This document shows positions 7,952-31,400 of a stretch of 64,000 nt of DNA, piece by piece. The position numbers and the translations under genes are program-made. Every line of letters begins with the position of its first letter. Within the stretch, counting starts at the first letter, position 1. Location: IMG/VR virus record IMGVR_UViG_3300042691_033915, positions 1,005 to 65,004 of that record. The stretch is one strand, 5' to 3'. The notes under the pieces are model-generated. The model saw only the letters and a program-made list of their open reading frames with translations, was not told the DNA's origin and ran no database searches. Source of the stretch: a virus. Taxonomy: Duplodnaviria; Caudoviricetes.

Positions 7952-10099
7952 CTACTTCTTTCCCTTGCTTTGGCGAGATACCTTTGTTGACCACGTCTTC
8001 CCAGGGTCTCCGCCCCATAGTGCCCATGCGATGCGGCCATTGCTCGGGAATCCCTCTGACCCTGGAGCCCAGCCCTTGCCCTGCTTGTCAACTTCGTGGC
8101 GGGCAAAGTACGCGCTCATCTTTCGGATTCGGGCTAGTGTCAAACGGTTGCCAATAATCATCCGTGCGGTAGCCTGGCCTGGGCCAATGCCGCCACGGCC
8201 AAACTCCTCGCGCCACTTCAAGCCCTTTCGGGCTTCTGCCTTAGCGCCGGCTGGGGCGACAGTGCTTGCGCCCTCCTTCTGGGTCTCAATCGGGTCGTTC
8301 TCAATGTTGACTGCCACAAACGAGGCGCCAATCTTCTTGTACTCTTCGGCAAGCTCGCTAGTCTTTTCAATAATCTCCAGTTCGCCGTTTCGCATTAGCT
8401 TACTTGCGGCGTAGAGTCGGAAGCGATTTTCGGTGCCCTCTGGCCACGTGTTGATAATCAAATCGTCATACGGGATCTTGTCTTCTTGAAGCCACTCGGC
8501 AATCTCTTCCTTGTCGTTCTTAAACCCGACAACAATGGCAATGCGTCGACCGGAATCCTTTGCCTCAGTGATTGCCTCGGCAACCTTTGGGCGAACTTCC
8601 CAGTCCTCGTCGTAGAGAGCCTCAATGCCAATCATCAAGCCAAGGAGTGCCTTGCTGGTTTGCTGTTGTGGGCTCATGGTTTCGCCCTGATTTGGCTCTT
8701 CGCCTGGGTTGTCTGGCCCGCCCTGCGCCGGTGCTGCCCCGCCGCCGTCTGGCTCGTTAGGGTCAGTTGGTGGGGTTGGACCGTCCGGGCCTTCAGGCTT
8801 GGCAAGCGCAACGTCAAGATACTCTTCGTAGCGAGAGAGCGGGATATAGCCCTTGGGCGAAGGAACAAAGATGTCATCGCCCATGCCGCCAATGCCCTCA
8901 TGACCACGCTCCTGCAAAGCCTCGTTCAGCTTCAGCCACGGCATGCCCGAAAGCGCAGCCTTGTAATAGCTAGACATAGTGCTTTGGCTTTCTCGGCCAA
9001 CCTCTGTGTAGACAAAGCGAAGGTTCTTGTCGTAGCGCCAAATGATTTCTCGGGTCATGTATTCAGCAATCAGGTCAAGCAGCGGGGCAATGCCGTTGTC
9101 GGCGGTAAATGCTGCTCCAACCTCTGCGCTTGCACGGTTGACGTCCATAGTAATGCCGATGTCTTGTGGCTGCACGCCAAATACGGCGCAGATCTTGCGG
9201 GCGAGGTAGACCTGCCACTCCATGAACTGCATGTCGCGGTTCGACGAGGCAAGTGGAATCCATTGCACGCCCTTGCCGCCGCCGGTAATGGCAATCTGGC
9301 TGCGTCCGGAAATCTCCGTGTCCCAATACGCCTTAAATGAATCAACCTGGTCTGCGCGGATGCCTTCGCCAAGATGCAATACGCCCGGAGGCGCTGCCTG
9401 GGAAACTGCCTTTGCGTTGTAGGCGGCAGCCGTAAGGTCAGCCTCAATCGTGTCCGCAAGAACTTCTAGCGGAGAGAGTCCGATAGGCGAATAAGTAACA
9501 GGGTTTGCAATGATGACCAAAAGCTCATGGTTCTTAAACTTGCGAATCTGCCGACCAGTTTCGTCAACCTCAAAATATCGCGGGTCGGTGTCGTTTTCCC
9601 CGTCCCACTCATTATTGAAAGCAATGCTGCCCCCGTTCTTTGCAATGAGTTCGGCTACTGGCTTTGCTCCTTCAAGCCCAATAGCGCCACCACGCGTCGG
9701 AATGACTTCAATGCAGCCCTGATCAAGCACGAGAATGTCTTCGACAACTGGCTCAATAAGGGAGCGCCAGGAGTCCATGCGGCGGTTTGGGTAGCGCAAA
9801 AGCTCCTTGACCTGGTTAATCTTTCGAATTGTGCCGCGCTGCTCTCCGTCGTAGGTAACAATGTCCCACTTGGCGCGACTAACTTGCTGGCGGCGAAGGT
9901 TGATTGCAGCGCGAATCCATGGGTTGCTGCGGGACCACTTGCGGAGCTGGAGTACGCTTCTGCGAGTCATTTGAACGCTGCCTACGCCACGGGCGTATGG
10001 CCCAATGTCATAGTCAGGAACAATGGCTGACCCACCGCTCTTTACGCTTGTGGTGTCTCGATTCAGTATCCGGTCAATTAGCGACCTATCGTCTGCCAT
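7952..10099 (-). CDS. HK97-family portal protein with two C-terminal accessory domains
   Basis: LLRYPNRR, GLSPLEVL, PPGVL, DMQFME..RKICAVFGVQPQDIG, LNEA. Then a Pro/Gly linker, a HAD-like segment and a RIAWALWGGD domain. Confidence 0.9.
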   Translation of the reverse strand: MADDRSLIDRILNRDTTSVKSGGSAIVPDYDIGPYARGVGSVQMTRRSVLQLRKWSRSNPWIRAAINLRRQQVSRAKWDIVTYDGEQRGTIRKINQVKELLRYPNRRMDSWRSLIEPVVEDILVLDQGCIEVIPTRGGAIGLEGAKPVAELIAKNGGSIAFNNEWDGENDTDPRYFEVDETGRQIRKFKNHELLVIIANPVTYSPIGLSPLEVLADTIEADLTAAAYNAKAVSQAAPPGVLHLGEGIRADQVDSFKAYWDTEISGRSQIAITGGGKGVQWIPLASSNRDMQFMEWQVYLARKICAVFGVQPQDIGITMDVNRASAEVGAAFTADNGIAPLLDLIAEYMTREIIWRYDKNLRFVYTEVGRESQSTMSSYYKAALSGMPWLKLNEALQERGHEGIGGMGDDIFVPSPKGYIPLSRYEEYLDVALAKPEGPDGPTPPTDPNEPDGGGAAPAQGGPDNPGEEPNQGETMSPQQQTSKALLGLMIGIEALYDEDWEVRPKVAEAITEAKDSGRRIAIVVGFKNDKEEIAEWLQEDKIPYDDLIINTWPEGTENRFRLYAASKLMRNGELEIIEKTSELAEEYKKIGASFVAVNIENDPIETQKEGASTVAPAGAKAEARKGLKWREEFGRGGIGPGQATARMIIGNRLTLARIRKMSAYFARHEVDKQGKGWAPGSEGFPSNGRIAWALWGGDPGKTWSTKVSRQSKGKK

Positions 10100-10324
10100 T
10101 TAGCCTCTCCCTCGAATTCCGCCTCGCAGTGCCCTGCGGAAGATTGAATCCGTCATTTGCTTGTTTACGTGGTCTTGCATTTCTGCTCTCGTGCAGGATA
10201 CCACTCTTCTCCCGTTGCGATACGTTACCGTGTGCTGCGACATGTATTGGCTCCACCATACAGGAACTACGCAGGTAATATCAACAAACTCAACCTCTAC
10301 GGTTGATTGAATGTCAGGATTCAT
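10100..10324 (-). CDS. hypothetical protein
   Basis: Abuts the portal start; 74 aa. Confidence 0.6.
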   Translation of the reverse strand: MNPDIQSTVEVEFVDITCVVPVWWSQYMSQHTVTYRNGRRVVSCTRAEMQDHVNKQMTDSIFRRALRGGIRGRG

Positions 10325-10748
10325 TATCTGTCAATGACTCCAACGCCCAAGCCCTGGCTTCGGCTTCGGCTTCTTCTAGGGTTGGCAAATTCGCCTCTTC
10401 TATCTCTTCTTCCTTTTGCAATATTTCGTCAAGTCTCTGGTGGTATTTTCTTGCCTGAGGAACGCTCATCCGAAGGGACTTTAAATGCTTGTGGCAATTC
10501 GGGCAAACCGCGTAACGCTTTTGACCCTTGGCCCGTGGGACCATTGGTTCAAGGACTAGGTTTTGCTCCGTGTGGGATTCCCCGACCAGGATGGTGCACA
10601 GGGCGCACCGGAAGTGGGCCTTGCGCTGGTGATCGTAGCTTTCCAAGATTGGCTGGATGGTTCTTTGTAGGCGAAGGAGCGCCGACGCCAAGTCCTGGAC
10701 CTCAGAACCCGACTCGCGTATCTGTTCGCAAAGTATGCATTTTTCCAT
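10314..10748 (-). CDS. hypothetical protein with three CxxC motifs
   Basis: CILC, CALC, CPNC; TGA-TAACAT 7 nt before the ATG. Confidence 0.7.
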   Translation of the reverse strand: MEKCILCEQIRESGSEVQDLASALLRLQRTIQPILESYDHQRKAHFRCALCTILVGESHTEQNLVLEPMVPRAKGQKRYAVCPNCHKHLKSLRMSVPQARKYHQRLDEILQKEEEIEEANLPTLEEAEAEARAWALESLTDNES

Positions 10749-10905
10749 AGGGGGTATGTTATCATGCTTTCAAGATGGTATGACACTAGACACACAACTG
10801 CGTGCAGATACTATAGGTATAGATTTGTAGCGCGTTGTGTTACAGGATAAAGCATGTGTATTATCTATCCGCTGACCAAGTTGCGTCGGCCATATAGGGG
10901 GAATC
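10749..10905. promoter_or_regulatory. divergent promoter region between portal and head operons
   Basis: AT-richer 157-bp gap between divergent genes. Contains TAACAT (- strand), TACTAT (+ strand) and an AGGGGG RBS. Confidence 0.6.
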
Positions 10906-12672
10906 ATGTCTGATTTCAAGATCTATACAAACGCGTTGAAGGCCTACGAGGCTGATAACGGCGACCGATTCGTAACTGGAACTACCTCCTCAACAATTAG
11001 GGACCTTCATGGAGATGAGATGACCCTATCTGCCTTGAAGAGCATGGAAGCTACCGCCAAGCAGAATATGACTATTTGGCTAAATCACGAATACCAGGTT
11101 CCGGACGACCTTTTTGGCTCCGTCAAGGACGCGCGCATTGTGAAGCGCATTGACGCAACCGGCCAAGAGGTCTTTGACCTTGATGTCGATATATCTGTTG
11201 TTTCTGAGGACGAGAACCCAGAAGCAATTCGTGCTTACCGCGCAATCAAGCGCGGTGTCAAGCTCGGGCTTTCAATTGGTGCGAAGGTTGACAGAGTTAG
11301 CAAAAAGGTTGACAAGTCAACTGGAGAAGAGACATATGTCATTGACAGTGTCAAGTTGATGGAGGCATCGGTTGTTGGTATTCCGGCAAACCAGCGTTCA
11401 TATCTACAGAATGCTGTAAAGAGCCTTCGTGGTGCTTCCCGGGCGGAAATGGACGAGCTCGTGGCTAAGGCTGTTGAGGTCGAGGGCCAGGCTGGAGCCG
11501 ATAAGGCCCCGCTTATTGGCGCGCTGTACACGCTCCTTGCCGAGGCAACCAGTTTCTACCTAAAGGCGCATGGCGCCCATTGGAACGTTGTCGGCGAAGA
11601 GTTTGCCCAATATCATGAGCTCTTCCAGGAAATTTACGAAGACGTTCATGAATCACTTGATCCAATTGCAGAAAACCTTCGCAAGCTAAACTCGGCAGCT
11701 CCTTTTGAGCTGAAGGATTTGGCCCGAATGACCAACGACGCCCCACAGGCGGAGGGCTACGAAGCCGAAGCCCTTGCCTCTAATCTTTATGCTGCCAACG
11801 AATCACTGCTGGAAAACATCATGGTTGCCTTTAAGGCTGCCACTGATGCCAACCAGCAGGGGGTTGCTAATTTCCTGGCCGAGCGCCAGGACATGCACCA
11901 GAAGTGGTCGTGGCAGCTCCGGGCTTCTCTTACTGAGGAGTCGGGCGAGGCTGAAAAGTCAGGCGAGGCAGAAGTACTGTCCTCAGCAATGAAGCAAAAC
12001 AAAGGCCCACAGGGCAACCCATTGGAGGTAAAGAGCGTGGAAAACGAGACCATTAACCCTGAGGCTATTGAGCCTGCCGCCGAGGAGGTTGTCGCCGTTG
12101 AGGAGACTGCCGCCGAAGAGGAGCCAAAGCCACATCACATTGCCGTACTTGAAGAGTTCGGCGCAGAAGTTGTCAAGGATACCGACCTAGAGATTGCCGC
12201 TCGGCAGGCCCAGGCGGCCGCCGATGCAGCAGCTGCTGTAGAGCCAGAGGCACCAGCAGAAGAGAAGGTCGAAGAAGCCCCCGTTGTGGAGGCACCAGCC
12301 GTTGAGCCAGAGGCTCCGGCGGAAGCTCCAGCAACGGAAATTGAACATGCCGCAGAGCCTGAAGCTGCTGCGGATGATAAGTCGGCCGATACAGCAGCCC
12401 TTGCCGAGGTCGCCGAAATTGCCAAGTCTGCGCTAGATGCAGCACTTGCCGCACAGGCAGAAGTAACTGCTCTTAAGAAGAGCGTTGCCGAAGTCATTGC
12501 TGCAAAGGCCAAGGTCGAGCTGGAGTTGGAAAAGACATTGGACCTGGTTGGCAGACTGATTGACGTCCCCGTCGGTCATGTTCCAGCCTTCAAGCGCGCC
12601 ACGGGAGAGATGGCAACATCCGCCCCTTGGCTAAGCCCATACATCCAGCGTGTGCTGGAGACTCAGGAGTAA
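10906..12672 (+). CDS. HK97 prohead protease - Dps/ferritin-like domain - scaffold fusion
   Basis: Protease motifs RDLHGD, WLNH, GLSIG, EASVVGIPAN (aa 1-175). Dps motifs AHWNVVG..YHELF..DPIAE (aa ~200-343). Ala/Glu-rich coiled-coil tail. Confidence 0.9.
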   Translation: MSDFKIYTNALKAYEADNGDRFVTGTTSSTIRDLHGDEMTLSALKSMEATAKQNMTIWLNHEYQVPDDLFGSVKDARIVKRIDATGQEVFDLDVDISVVSEDENPEAIRAYRAIKRGVKLGLSIGAKVDRVSKKVDKSTGEETYVIDSVKLMEASVVGIPANQRSYLQNAVKSLRGASRAEMDELVAKAVEVEGQAGADKAPLIGALYTLLAEATSFYLKAHGAHWNVVGEEFAQYHELFQEIYEDVHESLDPIAENLRKLNSAAPFELKDLARMTNDAPQAEGYEAEALASNLYAANESLLENIMVAFKAATDANQQGVANFLAERQDMHQKWSWQLRASLTEESGEAEKSGEAEVLSSAMKQNKGPQGNPLEVKSVENETINPEAIEPAAEEVVAVEETAAEEEPKPHHIAVLEEFGAEVVKDTDLEIAARQAQAAADAAAAVEPEAPAEEKVEEAPVVEAPAVEPEAPAEAPATEIEHAAEPEAAADDKSADTAALAEVAEIAKSALDAALAAQAEVTALKKSVAEVIAAKAKVELELEKTLDLVGRLIDVPVGHVPAFKRATGEMATSAPWLSPYIQRVLETQE

Positions 12673-12678
12673 TAAATC

Positions 12679-13905
12679 ATGAGCGACCACCGAGAGATCC
12701 TAGGCGGATTCGAGAAGGGTCTTGAAACCCTTAACGAGTCCGTAGTGACCCGCGATTCGGGCACCGGGAAGACTTTCGACGCCGCCGAGGCCTACGCGAT
12801 TCAGAAGGACCTTCGCAAGAAGTTCTCGAAGATGAACACGTCCGACCTTCACGAGATGCTTGACATTCAGGCAGCCCGCGAGACCGGCAAGCAGGCTTCG
12901 TCCGACGTCCTTAATCAGTTGGCAGTTGCTAATCCCAACATTGCCAAGCTTCTTGACAGCAGCGGCGGCGCGGCTCTTATCCGACAGGACTTGGAGCCAA
13001 TCCTCTATTCGCTGTTTGTAAAGAAGTTCCCATTCTTCGAGCGCATTCGCAAGGAGCCGGCAAACGGCCTCGTGCACGCGTTCAACCAGCAGACCGCTTA
13101 CGGTACCGCCGTCTTCCAGACGGAAAGCGGCACCGTGACCGATGATGCCGCGACCTACGTTCGCCAGACGACCAATGTGGCCGTTCTTGCGACACGACGC
13201 GGTATCACGCTGAAGTCGCAGTTCGCCCTTAACCAGGGTGGCGGCCCATTCAACGGGCTTTCGACCGAGCTTGCCTCGGGCGTAACTGCTATTGCAGCGA
13301 AGCTCCAGACTTCTCTCTTCCAGGGCAACGCCACTGTCACCACGGGTGCAGGCGCAGCCACCGAGCTTGGCGCGTATGACGCGAACGGGTTTGATGGTCT
13401 TCGCAAGCAGCTTGGTAACGCAGCTGGTACGTCCCAGCGAGTCAACAAGTCATCCGCTACGTATCTTTCAACGATCAATTCGAACGTTGCATCGATTCTT
13501 AACGCGGGTGGAAACCCAACGGCAATCCTTGCTTCGCCAACGGATTACGCTGGTCTTGTTAACGAAGTAACCAACCTTGTTCGATACAATGCCCCATCGC
13601 AGGGCCAGCAGGTTATGGGCCTCACCCTTGGCACCGTTGTTACGGCTGCCGGTGAGCTTCCAATCCTGTCGGTTCCTGGCGACAGCATTGGTTCGTACTC
13701 GATCAGCACAGACTCGTACCGCGACATGTATGTCGTAGACGAGGATTCCTGGTCGATGCCGTACCTCGGCTCGGACTCGATCACGACGCTGGAGATTCCA
13801 GTCGGCGTGAACGGTGCCCTTTCGCGCCTTTACATTATGTATGTAATGTTTGGTCTTGCGAACAAGGCACCTCAGTTCAACGGCAAGATCCGCGTCACCG
13901 CGTAA
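12679..13905 (+). CDS. major capsid protein
   Basis: 408 aa, directly after the protease/scaffold, GGAG RBS, followed by a terminator. LFQGN and FDGLRK are typical of HK97-fold capsids. Confidence 0.85.
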   Translation: MSDHREILGGFEKGLETLNESVVTRDSGTGKTFDAAEAYAIQKDLRKKFSKMNTSDLHEMLDIQAARETGKQASSDVLNQLAVANPNIAKLLDSSGGAALIRQDLEPILYSLFVKKFPFFERIRKEPANGLVHAFNQQTAYGTAVFQTESGTVTDDAATYVRQTTNVAVLATRRGITLKSQFALNQGGGPFNGLSTELASGVTAIAAKLQTSLFQGNATVTTGAGAATELGAYDANGFDGLRKQLGNAAGTSQRVNKSSATYLSTINSNVASILNAGGNPTAILASPTDYAGLVNEVTNLVRYNAPSQGQQVMGLTLGTVVTAAGELPILSVPGDSIGSYSISTDSYRDMYVVDEDSWSMPYLGSDSITTLEIPVGVNGALSRLYIMYVMFGLANKAPQFNGKIRVTA

Positions 13906-19485: not shown

Positions 19486-22400
19486 GTGGCAGATACGGCA
19501 GACCAGTCTAGCACTGGACAGATATCCATTGGTCTTGATACCAGTCAATTTAAGGCTGGAACACAGGCCATCCTTGCGGATATTCGACTGCTTACCCAGG
19601 GTCTTAATCAGTTTGAGGCAGCGGGAAGTAAAGTCGGATCGTCTTTCCGGGGGTTGCGACAAGCCTCTCTTTCACTTAGGCAATTCAGAAGTGCGGTCGA
19701 CGCGGACGCAATTCCTGCACTGCGAAAACTGCAGCTTCAGGCAAACGCCTCTGCTGCAAGCCTAAGCAGGGTATTCAACGTTGGGGCTCAGCCCAATAAC
19801 GCTGTTTCTGGTATTCAGCGCGTTACCAATGCCTTGGCGGCACAAGAGCGCCAGGCAATGCGAACCGCAGACGCGATGGCGCGTGCAGCGATGTCGCAAA
19901 ACCGCACGGGCGCAATGGCATTTAGAAATGCTGGGCGCTCAGGGAGCGGTTCCTTTGGTCGAGGTGGGGCAGGTACGGGAGCCGCAGGAACGCGCGGCGC
20001 CCGCTCCTCACTAGACGATTCCGGGGCGGCTGCCCGCTCTATACCCAGCATAGCGGGCATATCAAGGGCCGCGCTTGGCCTGGAGCTCTCTAAGCGCTCC
20101 GGCATGCGCAAGGCAGGAATTGCCGTTAGGGGCCGGACAGGGGATACGGGACCATCCTTTGACACAGACCAAGGATTTATAGCAAGAGAGTCCAGGTCGC
20201 AGCTTGGTTCCCGTCTTCATGCGCGAGAGCTTGGTCAATATATTTCAAGGTTGCTTGCCTCAGAAACTGGCGACGTCTCGTATCCAGTTGAATCATTAGA
20301 TCTAAGAAACTATGCATTCCGTGGGAGTCGATTTGGACCGCCAAAGCCAAGGCGAAGATCAGGACGCTACGGCACTCAGCAAGCAGACCTAGATCTCTTT
20401 GAAAAGGGATTAGAAGCAGGAGACTTAAACCTTATTGAGCAAGCCTTTGGCGGGCCGCGATCTCGCCTAAGAGAAGACGTCCGGCGTTTGCCTGCGTATC
20501 TGCAAAATTTAATTAAGATGGCTAGAAACGCCAGGAGATCCAGCAGCACTTTCTTCCCGCGCTCTAATCCTGGCAGGCCAATGTCGGTCCACATCCCCGG
20601 TCGAGGCCTAACAGAGCTCTCTAAGAAATCGGGCAGGGGCGGCAGCGGTGGCAACAAGGATATTGACCGCGTAGTTAGCCAGCTATTCCCGCAAGGATGG
20701 AAATTTGAAAAGCGTAAGGGCGGCCACAACGCCGTCATTGCTCCATCTGGCCAAAAAGTATTCTACCCATCATCAGCCTCAGACCGCCGCGCAGTACAAA
20801 ACTTTATTTCCGAGCTGCGCAAGAAGGGTGCCGTTATCGATGGTCGTGGCTACGGCGGCAAAGAGGGCAAGGGCGGGCCGAGCGAAATGTCACGACGCTC
20901 TGGCGGGCGACCCGTTGCTGAGACAGCCTTTGGTTTTGTGCCAGACCGCCGACTTCTGGAAGCAATGCGCAGGGGCGACATGTCGTTTGGCCAGGAGATT
21001 GGCGCTCAACGCCTAAACACAAGGAGAGTATCCGCCACTGTTTCTATGGGCGGAAGATCGGGCCCCGGAAGATATAGCGGCACGGCTATTGCCATGTTCC
21101 CAGAGAACGACAGGGGCCTTCGTGGTCAATCGGGGCGAGAGGTTGGAAGAAACCTTGGGCAAGGAGACAGAAAGACTAGGCGCACTAAACTTTCTCCATA
21201 TAGCCCGATGGCAGAAAAAGTATACGAGGTTCTTGGCGCAATGCTTGGGGCCCCTACGCCTGCGGTCGTTAGAAGAAGGCTAACTCCACTAGAGCAGCAA
21301 CTGGCCACTGGCGGGACACTGCCGCAAGTTGGTTCTTCAGCCAGGGCAAACATTGGAAAAACCCGCAGAGTTGCTTCTGGAAGATTTGAAAACCCACAAG
21401 TGCGTCAACGCCGACCAATGGGCCGCAATGCATGGATGATCCCGTGGCTTGACGATTTCCAACCAATGAAGAGCGTACTTCGCGGGCACCCGACATTTGA
21501 CAACGAGATTAGAACGCAGGCGACCAGACAACTTGGATCAACACGAGACATGCGACGCATCATGCTCCTTGATCAGATCCTTGGTCAGACAGATCGACAC
21601 GGCTCAAACATGATGGTCGGCAAGGGGCGCGGCGGAAAGCGAAGAATTCTTGGAATTGATAACGAGCATATGTTTAGCATGGGCGGCCTCAATAGGCCTA
21701 TCTCAGATCTTGATAGGCAGCTAAACAATACGCCGCAATTCTCGTCATTCTCTGCTCGCTATACGCCGAGAGATGTTCCGCAGGGTGGTGGCACATTGCT
21801 GCCGTGGATGACAAAAGGGAGCGGCTCCAGCCTTTCAAGAATTAAATTAACAAAGCAGGAGCAAGATGCATCTGCGCGCGAAGCAAAAACCCTAAGGGGA
21901 ATCCTTGGCGGCAAGAGGTCAATGAAGATTGTTGAAGAATCCTTCTTGACTGCTGGCTACTCCAAGAGGGACACCGATAGGTACATGGCGGCCCTTCGAA
22001 CAAGGCTAGAGGCTGCGGCAATTACAAGAGAGTCAGAGGCATCTTCCGGGAGCAGCGATGCCGGCGATTATTCGAAAATGTTGGAGATGTCGCGCCGATC
22101 TGGTGCACAAAGAAGGCTTGCATCAAGAGCCAGAGCAACTGGTCGCGGGGTCATGCTTCCTCATGATCTTCCTGGTGGCGATTTTGCGGAACTCCCAAGA
22201 CCGCTTCGGCTGCTTGGCGAAATGCTGCACAGAAAAGAAGTAAACAGGGTAGCTCGGCCGGTAGAGTTTGAAGATTCAACTAGGTCGTCTTTGGTTACGG
22301 GAGAAACGTTTACTCCTGGCCGAGCAAGCAGGGGCTCCCGCCCTGTAATTCCTCAAAACCTTGCTGGCCGAAGCCCAGAGCAAATTTTTGCAGAAGCGCT

Positions 22401-25400
22401 TGTTGCTTCGCACAACGCTGGTATGCGGGTTCGAGAGATTGGCGCAGACCCTGAACGTTTGATTAATGCTCAGCTGCAAGCTATGGGTGTTTCCGTTGCG
22501 CAAGATGGAAACGTTAGGAGAATTATTTCTCGATCAGATCAAATGACTGCAGCGCGCGCGTATCAATTGTTTAGGAGACAGCAAAAAGGAATGGGCTCAA
22601 TTGCCGCATTGTCGCCTGGCTCAGTTAACGTGAGCTCATGGTTGGGCCAACAAGGCGGCGACGAGGGCTCGCGCAAAGACCTTCTTGGCGGAGCCCTTGA
22701 TGCAATGAGCGGTTTTGATGCGTTTAGAGAGGTGAGCGCGGGCACCGCCGGGGCACGCAGAGATAGAAGGGCTGGTCAGAGCGGTAACCGCAGAATTGGC
22801 CTTACGGGCGGATTTATTGCTACCGCGCCTAATAGATTTTACGTTCCAGGGATGCCCGACGCTGCGGGCTTAAGGAATCTTGTTGTTGGCGCAATGACCC
22901 ACAGAATGCCTGGCACACACGAGCAGGGCAAGCTTGCCGGCCTAAAGGGCATTGGGGTGCCAGGTGTCGGCACTAGCCTTATGGCTTACGAGTTGCGTCG
23001 GCACGCGCGGGCGATCATGGAAGCTCGCAGGCGGTACCCCGGTGCCCTGGAGGCTAAGTACGGTGTAACCCCAGAAGATCTTTCAGCACTAGGCAGGCCG
23101 CAAGGTTCTCCTCGCGGCCTTAGCTTAAAGGCGAGCGGTTCTGGAATGGGCCTGTACGAAGCGCTTGGCTTTAGCTTTAGCGATCCCGTTGACGAAGACG
23201 GGAAACTACCGAGCCGATTTATGCACATGGGCGGGCACGCAGTTGTTGACACGTACGAAAAAATCCGCGCAGAGATTAAGCGCGTAGAGGCGGGCCTTGC
23301 CGCTCAGGGCATTGCTTACAGCCCAATGGAGTTTGCGCGAAGGTCGGGTAAGGCTTGGACCGACCCAAATCTTGAAGACCGAAGAACGAGTATTTCAAGC
23401 AGGCTAGTTCCAATGATTTCAGACCCAGAGCAGCTTCGCGTTTCAGAAGAAGACTTGCTTGGGCCGTTTACCAGGGGGACGCGTTTTAAGCTACAGAGCG
23501 AAACATACACTTCTGGCCCATCGGCAGGCAAGCCAATTGCCCGACCAAAATCCCATCGTGGAGTTAAATACTACACCGCCACAACTCCAGGCGGCATAAA
23601 GATCGTCAACATCCCCGAGGACATTGACAAGGGAAGATTGCAGCAACTAATTGCCTCTACGGAAACAATGCGCAGAAAATACCCAGACAAGTATTTTCAG
23701 GTAAACCTGCAATACGGCAAGAGCGACAGGGGGGCTCTGGGCACAGCTGATCTTGGCGGGTCATTAATGGAGCTACGCGACTCGCTGTTTTCGGAATTTG
23801 CAGAACAAACAACGGGGTGGCGAAATGATTTTGAAACATTTGCACCAAAAAACCCCAATCAGGTGCGAGAGCATTATGGGCCTTGGGAAGAGGGAAAGCG
23901 CAGAAAGTTCAGAATGGTCCCTCGTGGCGCCCCAGATGGACGCCACGAAACTCTTGACAACGCACAAACTTTGGTTGCTCACGAATTTGGCCATTTGTTT
24001 TCCCCAGATCAGTGGGGTAGACGGCTTTGGAAAGAGGCAGGATTCCAAGGAACAATGGCTGGCGCCTCGATGCCATACCTTGACTTTAGAAGAAGAGGTA
24101 AGGGCGTCTCAGGGGAATATGGCGACATGGCCACAATTTCCCAATGGCACGACCAGGGACGGAGCCCGGGCGGCGCAATAAAAGATTTCCTTTTGCCTTA
24201 CGAAAGAATAAACTCTAGAGGAAGCTACCGGGGTGCTCCGGGGTATTTTGGCGGGGAATACTCTCCAGGGAGTAAAGCGAATAAGGAAATGCTTGGATCC
24301 CAACATCCGTTGAGAGAAGAAATTTTTCCGGCCATGATGCGGAAGATTGGCGAACTTATGGTCATTGGTGAGTATGGCCCGCTTTCTGCAGTTCTTCCTA
24401 GGTATCAAAAGAAGACAACATCTAAGGGTCGAACACGCATGCCTGGAGACACAAAATTCCAAACCATTGAAGAGGCCATGGACGAACTTTGGAGGATTGG
24501 CGGATACCGCAACGCGGAAACCACATCCCCTGCTTCGGAGTGGTACGCCTCTATGTTTGAGAGGTACAGCACCAGATCATTTGGTCAACCCGGAGCTATC
24601 CCAAAGCACAACATGCTTGGCTATCGCGTTGCAAGGATAATAGCTAAAAACTCTGGCTGGGCTGAGTACAGCAAGCGCTCAGGTGGTATCGGCGGGATGC
24701 TTGGCGGTCTCTTTGGTAAGGGCAGACCGAACATCATGCAGCAGATCACGGGCGGACAAACCTATGGGATGACGCTAGAAGACCTGCTGGGCGGAGAAAT
24801 TATGCCCGGCATGGGAAAAGCGCCTGAAGGGTTCACGGGCGCAACTGGAAAACAAATCTTTAACCTGAAGACCATGGCTGGAGAAATTAGACAGGTTCTT
24901 GCGCAGCCAATAGGCGGCGAGTACTCCCAGGGTGGTCGATTCCCAAACAAGGCAATGGAGATCCTTGCTGGGCTTCTTGGGGTGGAGACCCCAACAATTC
25001 TGGAGCGCAGCATTGGCGGCAGGAGATTGGCCATTCAGCCGATAGCCCCAGCGGACACCGCAAGCAGATTTGTCCAGAAGCGCAACGCGCCCCCATCCAA
25101 GAGGGTTGATGTATGGGAAGACGACGAAATTATTGGCTTCTTCTCTCAGCCCTTAGGCCCGAGCTCAGATGATCCAGACCTTCGCAAGCAGCCGTGGCTT
25201 GCAAGCAGGGGCGGAAGGCGCATGCAGATCCTTGATCACATTGCGCAAACATTCGACCGTCATAATTCAAACTATCTTCTCAATTTAATTGACCCCCAGG
25301 CTGGCCTTGGTCAGCCTGGAAATTATCGCGTTACCGCAATTGACCACGATCTGACCCTTAGCCCACCGGGCACTGGGGTATTAGGTCGGAGTCCATATCG

Positions 25401-28400
25401 GCCAGCCAGCAATGTGCCAATTGGCATCCCCGGACAGTTCCGGGACACTCAAACAAAACTCGCAAGGGAAGAAGCCGCTACCCTTGCGGGCGTTATGACG
25501 CGGCGAAAAGTTATAGAGCCGCAATTGCTTGAAGCATTGCGAGCAGGGGGATATAGTGAGCAGGAAGCACTCGCAACAGTCGATGCTATCTTCAGACGCG
25601 CACGTGAAGCGTTTAGGAGTCGCATGGCTGAATCGCGGGGCGCAGCCCGGCCGGACGGTCGGGAACTATCACGAAGATCAGGGGGTGGCGGTATGAACGG
25701 CCTGACGAACCCCTTTGCCGAATACAGCAAGCGCAGCGGCGGCGCAGCCACAAAAGATCCATATACATCCTTGCAGACCGCCTTTGAGCAGGTCACCCTT
25801 ACCGCCATCAAGAACCTGAAGGTATCCCTTGCTGGGCAGAAAGTAAGTCCTCAACTCCTTAGAAGCAGCTTTGCATCTTTCCAGCAAACAATTCTTGACG
25901 CAGCTACGGGCCAGGGAGAATTTGCTGGCGGCTCGATGCAGAAGGCGCTGCGCGGCATTGCACCAAAGGCACGCAAGTCCTTGATGGGCATGTTCAGCGG
26001 CATCCTGCAGGATATGGTGGACACGGGCACCGCCGCATTCAAGCGTGGCGACTTGAAGGGCATCCCTCTTCGCAAAGTGCTGTTCGGCATGCTTGGCTCA
26101 GTGCCGTCAACCTATGCGCCAGACATTGCGCAGATTGCCGCAAACCCAGCGCTTCAAGGAAAGAAGCCGAGCGGGAGCAGGGACAGAATCCCAGGAATTG
26201 CCGGAATAAATAAATACGCCACTGGGCTACAGCAGCTTGGCGGAGTTCCAATAGCTGCAGGGTTGCGCCTTGCTGGCTCCGCCACGCTTGATCAGCACCT
26301 ATTGGATCAAGGGTTTAACCCAGAAAACTATCGAGGCAGGGCCGGAATTGTTACCGACCTAATGCAAAAATATATGCCGAGCAGCCCAGGACTTCCTTCG
26401 GGCCTTAGATTCACAGACACACTCACCCCAGACAGCGAGGGTCGAAGTTCTTGGGGTAACTACATGCCAAGTAGGGGTGCGGGCATGGTTGGGCCAGGAA
26501 CGGCATACCCAGATGATCGCGTTGGGCAAATTTCTCTTGATCTTGGTAGCCAGGGGGGCATGCGGCGAAACGGCCTGGACAGAAGCACAGTAACCATTGG
26601 CAAGCTACTGGCAACGACGGCACATGAAATTACGCACAAAATGGTTGATGAGGCACAACTAGAAGCCGCAAAACTTTCTATTGGAAAAACTGACGCAGAG
26701 AAAGAAGAAATTCTCAAAAAGGTTACGGCCGCCAGGGGCGTACCGCAGAAAGATAAGTATAGGGCATACTCTGGTATTTCCGGGGAATACATGTTTGTGC
26801 CAAAAGGCAGTGCCCCAATTGGCGCACGTCCAATACCGCTGGGTAGCGGACAAAACCCAGAGGCTTACAGCTACATGGAGCTGCCAAAGGGTTCAATTAC
26901 AGAGTCGGAATACAAGGCTTTAAGCCCCAAGGCCAAGGCATCTTACGAAAAGGGCTACGTAACTGCAGATCAAGCAAGGGCAATTGACTCCAATGCAGGT
27001 GGACAACACATTAACGTCCCTGGACACTTTGGGCCACAGGCAGCAATGCTTGATGATTTTGGTGCCGGAGTTACGGAGTACGCACAGCTTCTTGCAGCAT
27101 CTACAAGGATTTTGCAACCAGGAGAAACACAAGCAAGCCTGCTCAGGTCTACGGCACAAATGAATGCTGGGTCCCGAGCAAACATAACTAGCTTCTCTGC
27201 GGCAACCCCAGGGGTTGCGGGAGTTTTGAACCCATTCCAGGGCGGCTTGCTTAAGGCATTTGATCTTTCCAAGGCGACTGGCGTGGGCTCATCCATGAAG
27301 CCAGTTGCTGAATTCCTTGCAAGGCTTCAAAGGAATATGTCCAGTCAGATGACCGACGCAACGGCCGCTGGTGGGCTTGACCCTAAGGATCTTGGCTCCA
27401 TGTTTACAAAGGCGCTTGCAAAAGCAATAGAGGCAACGCCAAAGGGCGAGCGATCCAGCGCTCTTTCGGCAATACGCCCAGACAGAATGCTTGACGCAGC
27501 TGTCATTCTTGACAGCATCGGTAGAGCAAAAAATATTCCGGCGTTGACGCGGATGATTGATGCGGGCGGGGCAGTTCCCGCAGTTTCAAGCCCGCATGGC
27601 ATTATGGGTTCAGACACGGAAACCGACGCAGACGTACAAAAAATTAACCGAGAGCTTGCCCGGGGCGGAGGGTCTCGCAAAAGAAAGCCAGCGCCCGGAC
27701 CGGCCCCAACCCCAGGCGCAGGACCTGGACTTGGATCTTTGCCACCAGACAGAATTGCAGTCATTGCCCCTAAGGGCGCTGATTTGCTCAGCAAACTCAC
27801 AGAGATTTTGTCAATGGGTGTTTCTGGCGGCGGGAAGGAAAATATTCCTCTCCGCAAGGTTATTCGCAAGGAAGCCGGACTGCCCGACCGACCACTCAGG
27901 GGAACGCAGCTTGCCACGGATAGCCTGACGAGTTCGGGCATTGCTGCGCTTGCGGAGCAGTTCCCAGAGCTTCTGCCGTTTGTACGAGAGTACAGACCAA
28001 ACCATCCGCTTCTTGGGCCTCAGCCAGGAACCAGGCTTCCTGCCACGAAGCGCGGGCGACGCGGAAGCGTAATTCAGTCACGTATTTCGACCTCAACGGC
28101 GGTGCAGCCATACGCTGACACCATGGACCCAGACTATTACCAGAATCAGGCCGATGCAATCTTTGGCTCCCGAGTCAACGATGCCTTTAACATGCTTGGC
28201 GGCCAGAACGGTCTTGGCTATTCGCCACGGGGATTTGGCAACCATATGAACGTCCTATTGGACGTAATGCCAGAAGATCAACTTCAGGGAGGCATAGACA
28301 AGCTTAAGCAGTTTGGCGCAACCATGAAGGACGCCTTCCTAAACTCCAAGCCCGTAGTTGGTTTGATGCAGGACTTTGATGATGCAGTGCTTAGGGCGGC

Positions 28401-31400
28401 AGACGGATCGCTGGACTTCAGTAAATCACTTGATGCGGCAACCGCGAGTAGCGGTGGGTTGGTAAATCAGCTGAAAGAAACGGTAAAACTTGCCGTTGCA
28501 TTCGTTCTTACGCAGAACGCTGCTAATGCTATTTACCGATCTATTAGCCACCTTTCCTCAGGTTTTATCCAGTTTAACCAGTCGCTTGAAGACGCCAAGG
28601 TAGGCTTCTCGACACTGTTCTACAACGCTGGCGATTCCATGGGCGTGGCCGAAGGTCGCGCAACTGGAATGATCGAACGCTTGAAGGAATTTGCTAACGT
28701 AACGCCGTTCTACTTCACGCAGCTGCAAGAAGCAGCTGTCCGAATGCAGGCTTTCGGTCTTGACATCGGGCAGGTTCTGCAGAGAGACCCGAATACGGGC
28801 GAGCTTGTTGGTTACATTAAGAACATCGGAGACGCAGTAGCCGCACTCGGTGGTGGCGATGAAAAGATCATGCGCATTACGTATGCGCTTGGTCAGATGA
28901 ACTCCGCTGGTCGCGTATACCAAAACGACATGATGCAGCTGGCAAACGCCGGTATCGCTGGATACGAAATCCTTGCTGAGGCTCTTATTAATGAGCTTGA
29001 AGCCAAGGGCAAGGACATGACTAATGAGGATAAGAAGATCCTCAACGACTTGTACACAAACCGCGTAGAGGCAATTCGAAAGCTGACAACTTCAGGAAGA
29101 ATTTCTGGTAAGGCTTCGGCTGCTGCCATCCTTTCTGGACTTGGCGAAAAGTACGGCGGCGGAATGGAGCGGTTGTCTAAGACGATGACGGGTGCGTTGA
29201 GCACCGTTTCCGACATGTCTCAGTCGCTTGTTGCAACCTTGACTGGGCCTCTGTACAACGCAATTAGAGACCTAGTTGTTGAGTTCGCAGGCGTTTTGCA
29301 AAGACCAGAAACCTTGGCCGTTTTTGTTACGATGAGCCAAAAGTTGCAAGGCTTTGCTGCTACGATAAAAGAAGCAATTCCCGCAACAGTTGCTACAATC
29401 GTTAATGCGTTTACCTACCTTGGCGGAATTATTGCTAAGGTCTTTGGTGGATCTGGAACCGCAAGCGCTGTTGACCTCCTAAGGTCAGGCCTACAGACAA
29501 TAGGGGATCTCCTTTCTAACAATGTAGTAAGAGCCGCTATCCTGGCAAGCGTTGCACTAAAGGCAATGATGTCAGTTGTTTCGGCAAACCCGCTTGTTGC
29601 GACTATTGGCATTGTTCTTGCGGCCCTTGGGGCCCTCCGTCAAGCCTACGAAAGTAACTTCCTTGGCTTTGCGGATACAGTCGACAACGCAATGGCACCG
29701 CTTGCGGAGATGGGCCCGGATATTGCCGAGTCTATTATCCCGGCGCTCAAAGAACTTATTGCTGCTGCGGCTCAGGTTATTGGCGGCGGTTTGGTTCTTG
29801 CGCTAAAGGCGGCATTGCCGATTATCTCCGCTCTTGCCAGCGCTCTTGGCGGCATGGCTGGAATCCTTGAAAAACTAGCCCCGCTCATTGGTGCATTCAT
29901 GGGGGCGTGGATTGTAAAGAAGGTTGCCATTGAAGGAATGGCTATTCTATTTACCAAACTGCAGAATGCAGCCGCATCAGCCGCAATGGCTGCTGGTGTT
30001 GCTGGGGTTCAGATGTCTTCGTGGGGCAAGCCTGGGGCAACCTACTACTCGCAGAAAATCCCTGTTCGAGCAGAAACCGTGGAGACAGAAGATGGACCGG
30101 TAACTGTATATAGGTCTGCCGCCCCAGAGGAGGGCCCAGGTGCAATCTCTAAGGGTGTTTCAATTGGCGATACGGACAAGGCCAGAGGCGCCATTGCTGG
30201 GCACATGCCGTTTGAGAAAATGTATGCCCTACCGCCAGAGCTTGCAAAAGTTCGATTGCAGTATTTGTCTAACGAAGGAATTATTGACCCAGCAACCGGA
30301 AAGCTGGCCGGGCTTGATGAGCAAGCCGGCACTGCGCAAGGTGCGCGCACGGAAAACAAAATTTTGCGATCAAGAAGCATGGAAGAAATTCTTGCTGCGT
30401 CAGGACGAGTTACGGTAGAGCAAATTGTAGAAGCAAGAAAGCAGCTAAGAGGGGACCAGGCACTTCAAGAGGCAGGTCTTGTTGATGTAAGTGAAACTGG
30501 AGAAGTTACCGCAAGCGAGCGAGGGAGAAGGTTCCTTCGAGAAAAACTTGAAAACGAACGTCAACGCCGAGCATTTGATAATGATATTTCAGTAGAGGAG
30601 CAGGTAAAGCGCGACCAGGCAGAGGCTGCCAGCATTAGGCAGGCCAATAAAGAGGGCCAAAAAGTTCTTGGGTATGTGCCAAGGCAGATTCCTGATTATG
30701 CCATAACCCCAGCTCAGCTAACCCCCGAAGAGGAGCTACAGGCGCTTCGTGGGCTAAAGGGAAGAACCTTTAAGGAAGGGTTTAATTACAACTATACGGC
30801 AGAGCTTTCTAGGCGCCATGCCGAGGCTAGGGCGGCGGGCAGGTATAGAACCGGCCTGGACGGATCAGAAATTCCAAACCTTGGGCTTACAGGAAAACTG
30901 CGAGCGCGAGGCGTTGCCACCGTTAAGACAATAAGCGACATGTTCGCCATGGGCGGACAAACCGAAATGATTGGCACGGCAGCTGATAAGTTTGGCAGCC
31001 TCGCCATGGCCACAAGCGGATTGCTGATGGGCTTTGAGGCCCTTGGCTCTACCGTTGGAATTAGCAGCAAGGAGCTGCAGGGCGTCTCAACGGCCCTTAT
31101 GGGTCTGGCTATTGTCTCAAAGGGTGTTGCTGCCGCAATGGCGGGAATTAGTGCCGCTGGCGGCCTAAAGAACGCCCTTAGTGGTCTACTTGGCTCCATG
31201 GGCGGGCCTATCGGCGCATCAATTATGGCCGCAATGGCTGGGGCCGTTTTTGTTGCGTCTGAAGTCTCTAAGCACGAAGCAGAGGCGCAAGCGTATAAGA
31301 ATCAAAGGAAAGATGACAAAGAGCGAGAAAAAGCAATTAAGACCAATTGGAACGAAAGCGGGCTTGGCTATCAAGTTCCGCTGATGGCTGGCGGCGAAGC

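Follow-up and report, generated by a model that had tools for sequence, protein, structure and literature searches.

Prohead protease and scaffold are encoded by fused or nested genes in phages lambda (C/Nu3) and Mu (I/Z), and we know of no such protease-scaffold protein that holds an enzyme passenger between the two parts. Passengers of other kinds are familiar: the IPs and Alt of T4, with their capsid-targeting sequence, and the MuF-toxin fusions are head-internal or ejected proteins, that is, non-structural passengers that reach the procapsid via head-assembly components and are freed by the prohead protease, and encapsulins take up ferritin-superfamily cargo (EncFtn, Flp, IMEF) into an HK97-fold shell via a C-terminal shell-binding element. 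In engineered P22 nanoreactors, as described in excerpts of one report, the cargo is joined to a truncated form of the scaffold end (PMC9962691), and the retention of biochemical functions by scaffolds is a matter of speculation only in the excerpted text of a 2026 paper (PMC13669383). Phages of several groups (Gratiaviridae, other gut phages and Lactobacillus plantarum myophages; PHROG 3636) encode Dps (mini-ferritin) proteins by separate genes; excerpts of two reports propose an antioxidant or iron role for these proteins and place the genes near DNA-metabolism genes, which is read as action in the host cell (PMC8008677, PMC6669764). That phage heads carry passengers and that encapsulins carry ferritin-like enzymes is known; a natural phage scaffold bearing a ferritin-family enzyme does not occur in the openly searchable articles, among which only standalone phage Dps was found and none that is joined to the protease or scaffold of a prohead. 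Two further papers (PMC12796354, PMC7354516) are irrelevant as far as their excerpted text goes, the terms standing there for decoration proteins ('DPs') and for the dps gene of the host.

In the uncultured freshwater phage analyzed here, represented by a 64 000-nucleotide stretch of DNA (the window), Dps probably enters each new head as optional cargo, judging from the gene in which it is embedded (Table 1). A single ORF encodes, from the N- to the C-terminus, an S78 protease, the Dps domain, a disordered acidic linker and a helical scaffold end, and stops 6 nt before the major capsid gene. The layout described in the earlier note, with Dps in frame between prohead protease and scaffold and just 5' of the capsid gene, is borne out by the Pfam S78 and Ferritin matches within this one ORF; the segment given there for Dps, 11506-11934, corresponds to aa 201-343. 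As in lambda and Mu, one frame just 5' of the capsid gene encodes the protease at its N-terminal end and the scaffold at its C-terminal end, with a possible internal start, but the slot that holds no passenger in those phages is occupied here by swappable cassettes.

Table 1. Features of the protease-Dps-scaffold locus (positions in the window).
Feature	Position	Strand	Basis
Portal protein, divergent transcription	7952..10099	-	Pfam, PHROG
Protease-Dps-scaffold ORF, 588 aa	10906..12672	+	ORF call, Pfam S78 and Ferritin, AF2 layout
S78 (HK97 gp4-like) prohead serine protease, aa 1-179	10906..11442	+	PF04586, PHROGs
Block exchanged for Hva1_TUDOR-like cassette in sibling L017 (approximate)	11440..11960	+	DNA and protein alignments, Pfam
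Short acidic linker with KAVEVEG-type motif, aa 180-195	11443..11490	+	Alignment of 33 sequences
Dps (mini-ferritin) domain, aa 196-343	11491..11934	+	Pfam, PHROG, PDB matches, AF2
Ferroxidase ligand codon H225	11578-11580	+	
W226 codon	11581-11583	+	
Ferroxidase ligand codon H237	11614-11616	+	
Ferroxidase ligand codon D252	11659-11661	+	
Ferroxidase ligand codon E256	11671-11673	+	
Ala/Glu/Pro-rich acidic region, aa 344-495	11935..12390	+	Charge, pLDDT, dN/dS
Candidate nested scaffold start: GGAGG, 8-nt spacer, GTG	12024..12039	+	Motif, alignment
Scaffold C-terminal end, aa 496-588	12391..12672	+	Alignments, AF2 helices
Major capsid protein, SU10_MCP-like, HK97 fold	12679..13905	+	PF17236 (E 2e-10), major head protein PHROGs

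A head-tail adaptor and tail genes accompany the portal gene (Pfam, PHROG), so that this is a genuine tailed phage, and the parallel with encapsulin cargo loading that had been drawn earlier holds as an analogy of mechanism, not as membership. The gene architecture is compatible with cargo loading of the encapsulin type, but encapsulin cargo is EncFtn or Flp on a short targeting peptide, whereas the cargo here is of the Dps type and sits on a full scaffold with its protease. The likeness to the passengers of T4 is similarly partial: the IPs and Alt are anti-host effectors with a targeting peptide, whereas this protein has no N-terminal targeting peptide and an iron enzyme is embedded in the protease-scaffold itself. 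The portal protein has an extra C-terminal phrog_2859 domain (aa 612-709).

The earlier note had raised the possibility of a stop codon dividing the domains. The window has none. Contigs of three independent DNA runs, each from a different study, span the domain junctions free of indels and with the frame open, and the frame is also open in a variant contig (X7). The contigs of an RNA-library run (X15) cover only 11302-11429, 12005-12049 and 12205-12800, with the Dps part outside the coverage, and the one at 11302-11429 continues into a non-Dps variant; shares of 0.07-0.22 were recorded for five other RNA runs. The AF2 model of the full-length protein (mean pLDDT 54.3, pTM 0.31) scores so low that it serves for the domain layout only.

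The assignment of the middle domain to the Dps family comes from several comparisons. It matches Pfam Ferritin (PF00210) at aa 206-343 (E 3.7e-12; 46.8 bits, cut-off 24.5; profile positions 3-137 of 142) and PHROG 3636, the family of the standalone phage Dps, at aa 201-342 (E 1.6e-23), and the best solved structure is that of Pseudomonas aeruginosa Dps, 8ff9 (E 1.8e-17), with aa 197-342 aligned to chain residues 9-154 (146 residues); identity to solved Dps is at best ~31% (Foldseek). The AF2 model of the domain (pLDDT 90.4, pTM 0.86) has helices at 9-38, 44-71, 80-84, 98-125 and 129-153 (model numbering) and superimposes on 8ff9 with TM 0.85/0.88 in Foldseek, many other Dps structures being similar; the predicted fold is a four-helix bundle whose long BC loop contains a short helix. 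Cellular Dps (P. aeruginosa PA0962, 8ff9; V. cholerae, 3iq1) share this bundle and BC-loop helix, the H/H/D/E inter-subunit ligands along with the adjacent Trp, the xKxxWxL-type C-terminal helix and the two-fold dimer, here predicted. They are free proteins, whereas the phage domain is embedded in a head protein, as it is also, in contrast to the standalone phage Dps, in frame inside a protease-scaffold.

The ligands H225, H237, D252 and E256 and the C-terminal KWSWQL (aa 333-338, of the xKxxWxL type) had been read off the sequence earlier, and both are present. The four residues, which we take to be the counterparts of H51, H63, D78 and E82 of E. coli Dps, lie opposite H, H, D and E of 8ff9, which was used for this check instead of E. 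coli Dps, the latter being absent from the 49 PDB matches with E <= 0.01. Neither they nor W226 vary in any of 121 homologous domains or in any of 38 domains from viral loci, and an alignment of 54 divergent Dps-bearing proteins, in which only 13 columns are invariant, has the four ligands among those 13. The invariance among the 121 domains appears only moderately specific, (59/150)^5 ~0.01, because the whole domain is highly conserved, with 59 of the 150 columns of that alignment at least 97% conserved. At position 241, four residues past H237, where we assume Asp to be the canonical Dps residue, the 121 domains vary (E, G or Q). Q317-Q318 stand opposite the D-E pair that opens the last helix in both printed alignments with solved Dps (8ff9, 3iq1), so that iron entry may differ from that in the solved proteins. 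The domain falls into a separate viral clade, whose invariant signature is DMHQKWSW. The dN/dS of the domain relative to loci L002-L004 is 0.06-0.08, compared with 0.24-0.30 for the long acidic linker (aa 344-495), and shows purifying selection on Dps.

A dimer of the domain was predicted with an ipSAE of 0.69 (best control, 0.00); the calibration mark is reached by 20 of the 30 proteins solved as pairs and by one of the 23 solved as single chains, and the pass may merely reflect solved Dps structures that the predictor has learned. Agreement between runs is 100% of the contacts, with the partner pLDDT at least 91, and residue 37 (W226) of one copy contacts residues 63 and 67 (D252, E256) of the other, as predicted for a Dps-type two-fold dimer that forms an inter-subunit ferroxidase site. 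With a pI of 4.66 and a net charge of about -12, the domain is strongly acidic; the flanking linkers are acidic as well, and a search of the domain for a Lys/Arg-rich terminal tail found none. DNA binding through such a tail is of the E. coli type and not universal in the Dps family; with an acidic domain (pI 4.7) lacking a Lys-rich tail, this mode is unlikely, the case for any direct DNA binding is weakened, and the acidity would disfavour a position against the DNA. Fenton protection or iron carriage remains the best guess for the function of the domain.

The protease part matches Peptidase_S78 (PF04586) at aa 48-170 (E 3.7e-7; 30.8 bits, cut-off 21) as well as head maturation protease PHROGs, and H61 and S123, presumably the catalytic residues of the S78 protease, are invariant in 33 of 33 sequences. 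It ends in K172-S173-L174-R175, a KSLR invariant in 8/8 sequences. In the linker that follows, K188, A189, V190, E191, E193 and G194 of the KAVEVEG-type motif (aa 188-194; nt 11467-11487) are likewise invariant in all 33; the motif, present in this lineage only and missing from the others, is a candidate processing site, where cleavage may occur, and a candidate upstream boundary of the cassette. E[LMFY][SA][KR][KR]SG, the motif of the giant ORF's linkers in its strict form, has 8 matches in that ORF and 0 in the protease-Dps-scaffold, portal and capsid proteins. A relaxed pattern finds those 8 sites and, beyond them, only SLRGA at aa 173; composed after the SLRGA site was known, it provides a lead, not a test.

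Downstream of Dps, the acidic region carries a net charge of about -33 and is predicted to be mostly disordered, with pLDDT <50 over most of aa 345-495. The scaffold end has a predicted long helix (496-553), a terminal helix (578-587) and an invariant motif comprising A573, W575, L576 and P578. Its position, and the way in which scaffold proteins generally behave, make it the presumed capsid-binding end. Within the acidic region, GGAGG (12024-12028) precedes an in-frame GTG (12037-12039; aa 378) by 8 nt, and the block ATTGGAGGTAAAGA[G/A]CGTGGAA is identical in the 8 aligned sequences (the window and 7 loci) and present in 10/10 related loci that carry the motif; this GTG is a candidate start codon that would yield the scaffold alone.

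The fusion is widespread among close relatives. A search for Peptidase_S78 plus Ferritin architectures, as proposed in the earlier note, found both PF04586 and PF00210 in 112 of the best 120 database relatives, so that what had looked like a singular oddity is a widespread modular cassette. Sibling architectures include those with no Dps (P0019), with TUDOR only (P0024) and with TUDOR plus Dps (P0005), their protease residues being 98% identical. In the sibling L017, a TUDOR-like cassette occupies the same slot and Dps is absent; the flanking DNA is ~88% identical (~85-97% per 60-nt block) with a clean block replacement in between, the similarity extends on through the capsid gene, and the rest of the 58.5-kb sibling record gave no Ferritin match. 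Because this sibling keeps the flanks and carries a TUDOR-like cassette without Dps, the latter is a dispensable, swappable cargo, and the protease-scaffold slot holds, in these alignments, no cassette, a TUDOR-like one, Dps or both.

These siblings bear directly on the possibility that Dps is a structural hub, with its oligomer multimerizing the protease and scaffold ends for procapsid nucleation, sizing or protease activation and with iron irrelevant. The predicted Dps-type dimer is compatible with such a role, scaffold proteins commonly act as oligomers, and the PDB matches include Dps-family chimeras with a foreign segment (7rzq, 8fa1 and others), which implies that terminal fusions are tolerated. 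However, the Dps-less siblings, with 98% of the protease residues identical, a closely similar scaffold end and a closely similar capsid gene, show that assembly needs no Dps, and four metal ligands among 13 invariant columns in 54 proteins would be unexpected if iron did not matter, although a dimer interface could explain them. The hub is therefore improbable, and of the purposes offered in the earlier note for loading Dps into the head, the organization of the scaffold is the one that is weakened. Loading as such gains from the covalent place of Dps between the protease and the capsid-binding end and from the repeated fusion of its clade to other head-internal carriers.

Across the wider viral clade, Dps is fused to other prohead proteases, MuF and portal-like proteins. 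Among 54 other Dps-bearing cluster representatives, Pfam recognizes S78 in 15, Phage_Mu_F in 2, and Mu-like_Pro and Peptidase_S78_2 in 1 each, and PHROGs recognize the head maturation protease phrog_80 in 17 and the portal phrog_859 in 5; a jackhmmer classification gives a recognizable head partner in 27 of the 54, but its database of 278 sequences and lenient E-values make the Pfam and PHROG tallies preferable. Dps follows the protease in L042 and L049 and precedes it in L045, so that both orders exist. By these matches, Dps is recurrently fused to head proteins.

The same survey contains the evidence for a role in the infected cell, where Dps, free or fused, would act as the product of an auxiliary metabolic gene that cuts cytoplasmic Fe2+ and H2O2 during replication and assembly, the late, strongly expressed head gene being just a handy expression vehicle and head-borne Dps degraded and without a role. 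In 14 of 22 Dps-only viral loci of the same clade, Dps is a standalone protein of 144-196 aa without a visible carrier; of five such neighborhoods inspected, only that of L052 has Dps beside a head gene (directly downstream of the capsid gene), those of L033 and L041 being ~4 kb from TerL amid unannotated genes. Excerpts of the literature read standalone phage Dps in this way (PMC8008677, PMC6669764). Against this, the fusion partners that can be named are nearly all head-internal (three protease Pfam families, MuF and portal-like proteins), none of them serves replication or metabolism, and convenience of expression poorly explains both domain orders; the slot between the protease and the capsid-binding end would make entry into the procapsid nearly unavoidable. 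A role confined to the infected cell is thus unlikely, if less so than the hub.

Members of the clade also occur in proteins bearing MuF, Zeta-toxin, WGR and kinase-like modules, which resemble virion-delivered polyvalent proteins, and this phage encodes a 5,495-aa multi-module virion protein. Both observations fit an ejected effector, whereby Dps would be injected with the DNA and refold, then protect the incoming DNA or alter the iron or oxidative-stress state of the host. Dps cages are very stable, however, and a folded oligomer is too big to traverse the tail channel; the domain, moreover, has no DNA-binding tail. Ejection is about as improbable as the structural hub.

The reading that we prefer, with a probability of roughly 0.6 for the whole, is that of a capsid-targeted accessory Dps that is processed, retained in the head and limits Fenton damage; entry into procapsids, processing, oligomerization, persistence in mature heads and the chemistry are all inferred. 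Dps would be translated as the middle part of the protease-scaffold protein, and the C-terminal scaffold helices would anchor the protein to the inside of the SU10-like HK97-fold shell during assembly. Each procapsid would thus receive as many Dps domains as full-length chains, possibly few if the nested start at aa 378 yields most of the scaffold. Inside the shell, two-fold dimers would form di-iron sites, with H225 and H237 from one chain and D252 and E256 from the other, and the dimers would probably build dodecamers. The S78 protease would then cut the linkers flanking Dps, and might also degrade Dps; a folded oligomer, too big for the capsid pores or the portal, would most likely stay in the head next to the DNA, where, by using up Fe2+ and H2O2, it would restrict the Fenton damage that the genome suffers in oxic, sunlit fresh water.

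Loading of an active Dps, if it occurs, would give viruses a new means of genome protection outside the cell. Nature would then have its own version of the engineered P22 scaffold-fusion nanoreactors, and procapsids and encapsulins would share a functional connection open to testing. The Dps+ and Dps- siblings and the cassette variants in one slot make the loading question directly testable. A broader proposal, held only tentatively and rather doubtful, is that a widespread group of freshwater phages keeps iron-bearing Dps cages next to the DNA in mature heads, as an encapsulin-like iron and peroxide sink that prolongs virion survival in oxic, sunlit water, the slot being a general cargo site for Dps, TUDOR-like, phrog_2859 and other modules. 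Such iron-filled cages, if real, would make these virions a living functional intermediate between phage procapsid and encapsulin and a hidden pool of virus-bound iron, which may bear on the amount of iron bound to virus particles in lakes.

Among 50,697 phage records, tblastn with the entire protein gave only two weak matches, both to the Dps part alone (22% and 12% of the query), and a search with the capsid protein among phage records gave none, so that a cultured model phage is lacking. In genomes sampled as one for each of 185,579 species, only 4 contigs, all of them from MAGs, out of 94 pattern matches carry the DMHQKWSW clade.

The 588-aa protein encoded by the ORF 10906..12672 (+ strand) combines two Pfam domains, Peptidase_S78 (aa 48-170; E 3.7e-7, 30.8 bits, cut-off 21) and Ferritin (aa 206-343; E 3.7e-12, 46.8 bits, cut-off 24.5, profile positions 3-137 of 142), and its aa 201-342 match PHROG 3636, the phage Dps family that is labelled 'DNA binding protein' (E 1.6e-23). 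The 49 distinct PDB sequences that match at E <= 0.01 are all Dps-family proteins, except for engineered chimeras on a Dps-family scaffold; in the alignment with the top match, P. aeruginosa Dps 8ff9 (E 1.8e-17; aa 197-342 versus chain residues 9-154), the ligands H225, H237, D252 and E256 lie opposite H, H, D and E, and the protein also has the neighboring W226. The Dps domain that the earlier note had recognized at 11506-11934 (aa 201-343) is thus confirmed, far above chance. The parent IMG/VR viral record comprises 65,004 bases, with the CheckV completeness of 72%.

The domain junctions are bridged by contigs from three DNA runs of different studies, namely, X2 (10800-11910 and 11889-12355) and X6 (11066-11756), both with zero differences from the window, and X7 (11392-12800), with 15 substitutions that cause 8 residue changes and leave the reading frame open. 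With no insertions or deletions reported in these contigs, and no stop codon between the domains in the window or in any of them, the single fused frame is upheld against the break that the earlier note had named as its refutation. Other X2 contigs match the window only at the most conserved Dps core (11554-11603 and 11889-11931) and then diverge, which suggests that this sample holds several lineages of Dps-bearing phages.

Features of the fusion protein, its genomic setting, the variants of the protease-scaffold slot and other Dps carriers
Feature	Location	Remark
Protease domain, beta-rich	aa 1-179	ends in invariant KSLR
Short acidic linker after protease		holds invariant KAVEVEG, aa 188-194
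Dps four-helix bundle	aa 196-343	
Disordered Ala/Glu/Pro-rich stretch	aa 344-495	net charge about -33
Long helix	aa 496-553	C-terminal part of the ORF 10906..12672 protein
Terminal helix	aa 578-587	with invariant A573, W575, L576, P578 motif
Candidate nested start	12024-12039, aa 378	GGAGG, 8-nt spacer, in-frame GTG; inside acidic linker
SU10-like HK97-fold capsid protein	12679..13905	next gene after ORF 10906..12672
Portal gene	7952..10099	opposite strand, upstream of ORF 10906..12672
Head-tail adaptor and tail genes		downstream of capsid gene
Slot: nothing	P0019, 435 aa	
Slot: Hva1_TUDOR	P0024, 527 aa	
Slot: Dps alone	window protein, 588 aa	
Slot: TUDOR plus Dps	P0005	
Slot: Dps plus second TUDOR-like unit	P0012	
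Locus L042		protease, then Dps
Locus L049		protease, small domain, Dps
Locus L045	1506-3143	phrog_2859, Dps, protease; Dps precedes protease
Locus L032	1723-6942	1,740-aa portal-like + protease protein, Dps at its end
Locus L052		standalone Dps immediately 3' of capsid gene

Between the divergently oriented portal and protease genes lies a 144-aa ORF (10314-10748, minus) with several Cys pairs in a zinc-finger-like pattern; a PHROG search with it yielded no match.

The S78-Ferritin architecture, for which the earlier note proposed to search, is present elsewhere and is not a one-off: among 8,000 candidates scored in the database search, 504 proteins match at E <= 0.001, and PF04586 and PF00210 occur together in 112 of the 120 best relatives. 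One related cluster bears the NCBI name 'DNA-binding protein Dps [uncultured Caudovirales phage]'. When representatives were searched exhaustively, 3,817 clusters matched at E <= 0.001, and 192 of them still did so at E <= 1e-30; these counts take in matches to either domain. By comparison of the related proteins, the slot between protease and scaffold is modular, and P0019 and P0024 agree with the window protein at 98% of the protease residues. The related phage contig L017 shows about 85-97% DNA identity to the window per 60-nt block on both flanks of the slot and remains similar through the capsid gene, with nucleotides roughly 11440-11960 swapped for other sequence; no Ferritin match was found across the 58.5 kb of this record (rated only 64% complete). 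Given such flanks and capsid gene in a phage that lacks Dps, the domain is dispensable for the assembly of this capsid. These siblings weaken the view of Dps as a purely structural oligomerization hub, and with it the scaffold-organizing purpose that the earlier note had considered. In another relative, P0142 (777 aa), two Dps domains occur in tandem (aa 39-181 and 202-343).

The model of the Dps domain on its own (pLDDT 90.4, pTM 0.86) superimposes on many solved Dps structures with TM 0.85-0.88. For two copies with iron, a Dps-type two-fold dimer is predicted (ipSAE 0.69, best control 0.00). In the calibration, 20 of 30 proteins solved as pairs attained the mark, against 1 of 23 solved as single chains; for Dps, the contacts agree 100% between runs, partner pLDDT is at least 91, and W226 contacts D252 and E256 of the other copy. 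Because many solved Dps dimers exist, this prediction attests to likeness and is not proof of binding.

The four ligands and W226 are unchanged in 121 of 121 Dps domains of database relatives (one of 122 matches, aligned over <120 residues, was left out), a set in which conservation reaches 97% or more at 59 of 150 columns. Among 54 Dps-bearing proteins of far greater divergence, the invariant columns number only 13 and include all four ligands; conservation of the Trp is 90% or higher. Nei-Gojobori dN/dS values for Dps, 0.074, 0.080 and 0.060 versus the related loci L002, L003 and L004, respectively, compared with 0.24-0.30 for the acidic linker and 0.011-0.018 for the protease, point to strong purifying selection on the domain, with synonymous sites saturated in the more distant pairs. 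Across this gene, dS versus L002 is 1.98 in the protease and 0.48 in Dps, and identity to L021 and L022 is 82% in Dps, 70% in the protease and 52% in the scaffold end; the gene appears to be a mosaic, with cassettes recombining between lineages.

The fusion, the fold, the ligands, selection, modularity and recurrent association with head proteins are observed, and the mechanism that follows is the most likely one built on them. The C-terminal helices, the expected capsid-binding scaffold end, would bring the entire protein into the procapsid; Dps would dimerize and probably assemble into dodecamers; the protease would cleave the linkers on either side; and the oligomer, too large to escape, would remain beside the DNA and clear Fe2+ and H2O2. 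E. coli-style DNA condensation is unlikely for this acidic domain (pI 4.66, net charge about -12), which lacks a Lys-rich tail. Position 241 varies among relatives, and Q317-Q318 lie opposite D-E in both printed solved Dps alignments, departures from canonical Dps that presumably bear on iron chemistry, on which they counsel caution. The proposal that the phage loads Dps into its head is partly supported, by architecture and head association. The parallel with encapsulins holds in that the arrangement would work like their cargo loading, yet the system itself is no encapsulin. We infer the cargo role from sequence and models, and the significance of the fusion hinges on experiment.

The block with the putative nested start is identical in 8 of 8 aligned sequences, though codons nearby vary, and the block recurs in all 10 related loci that have the motif. 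The scaffold may thus have a nested start here; if so, most of it would lack Dps, and Dps would enter at a lower, protease-like copy number. Elsewhere, a 5,495-aa ORF (19486-35973) contains eight copies of the motif E[LMFY][SA][KR][KR]SG; the relaxed, post-hoc form [SA][KRL][KR][SG][GA] has only one other site in the 13 proteins scanned, SLRGA (aa 173-177; 11422-11436), just where the protease domain ends, and the two may represent a shared processing site.

A full-text literature search found no published account of a fusion of Dps with a prohead protease or scaffold, although phage head-internal passengers and protease-scaffold fusions are known kinds of which this is a variant. Published sources describe standalone DPS genes in Gratiaviridae, 36 other gut phage genomes and Lactobacillus phages (PMC8008677, PMC6669764), P22 scaffold fusions engineered for encapsulation (PMC9962691), and the speculation that scaffolds might retain biochemical functions (PMC13669383).

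Members of this Dps clade are also carried by other head proteins. Among 54 other Dps-bearing cluster representatives (each >300 aa), Pfam identifies S78 in 15, Phage_Mu_F in 2, Mu-like_Pro in 1, Peptidase_S78_2 in 1, Zeta_toxin in 2 and HAD phosphatase in 3, and PHROGs identify phrog_80 (head maturation protease) in 17, phrog_859 (portal) in 5 and phrog_2859 in 9. The co-occurring MuF and Zeta-toxin modules suggest an ejected effector, a role difficult to square with the stability of the cage. Standalone Dps of 144-196 aa is found in 14 of 22 Dps-only loci; in two of these, TerL is about 4 kb away and the neighboring genes are unannotated. Such loci argue against a universal cargo role in the clade, and action in the infected cell, the published reading for standalone phage Dps, is a rival explanation. 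The signature DMHQKWSW is invariant in this viral clade, which occurs in only 4 contigs, all from MAGs, across 185,579 species with one genome each. The window's portal carries an appended C-terminal domain (aa 612-709; 7952-8260, minus) that matches phrog_2859 (E 6.8e-15), a family that is N-terminal in the Dps-protease proteins of other lineages (L045, aa 6-102; L032, aa 79-182) and appears to be a second passenger module associated with the head.
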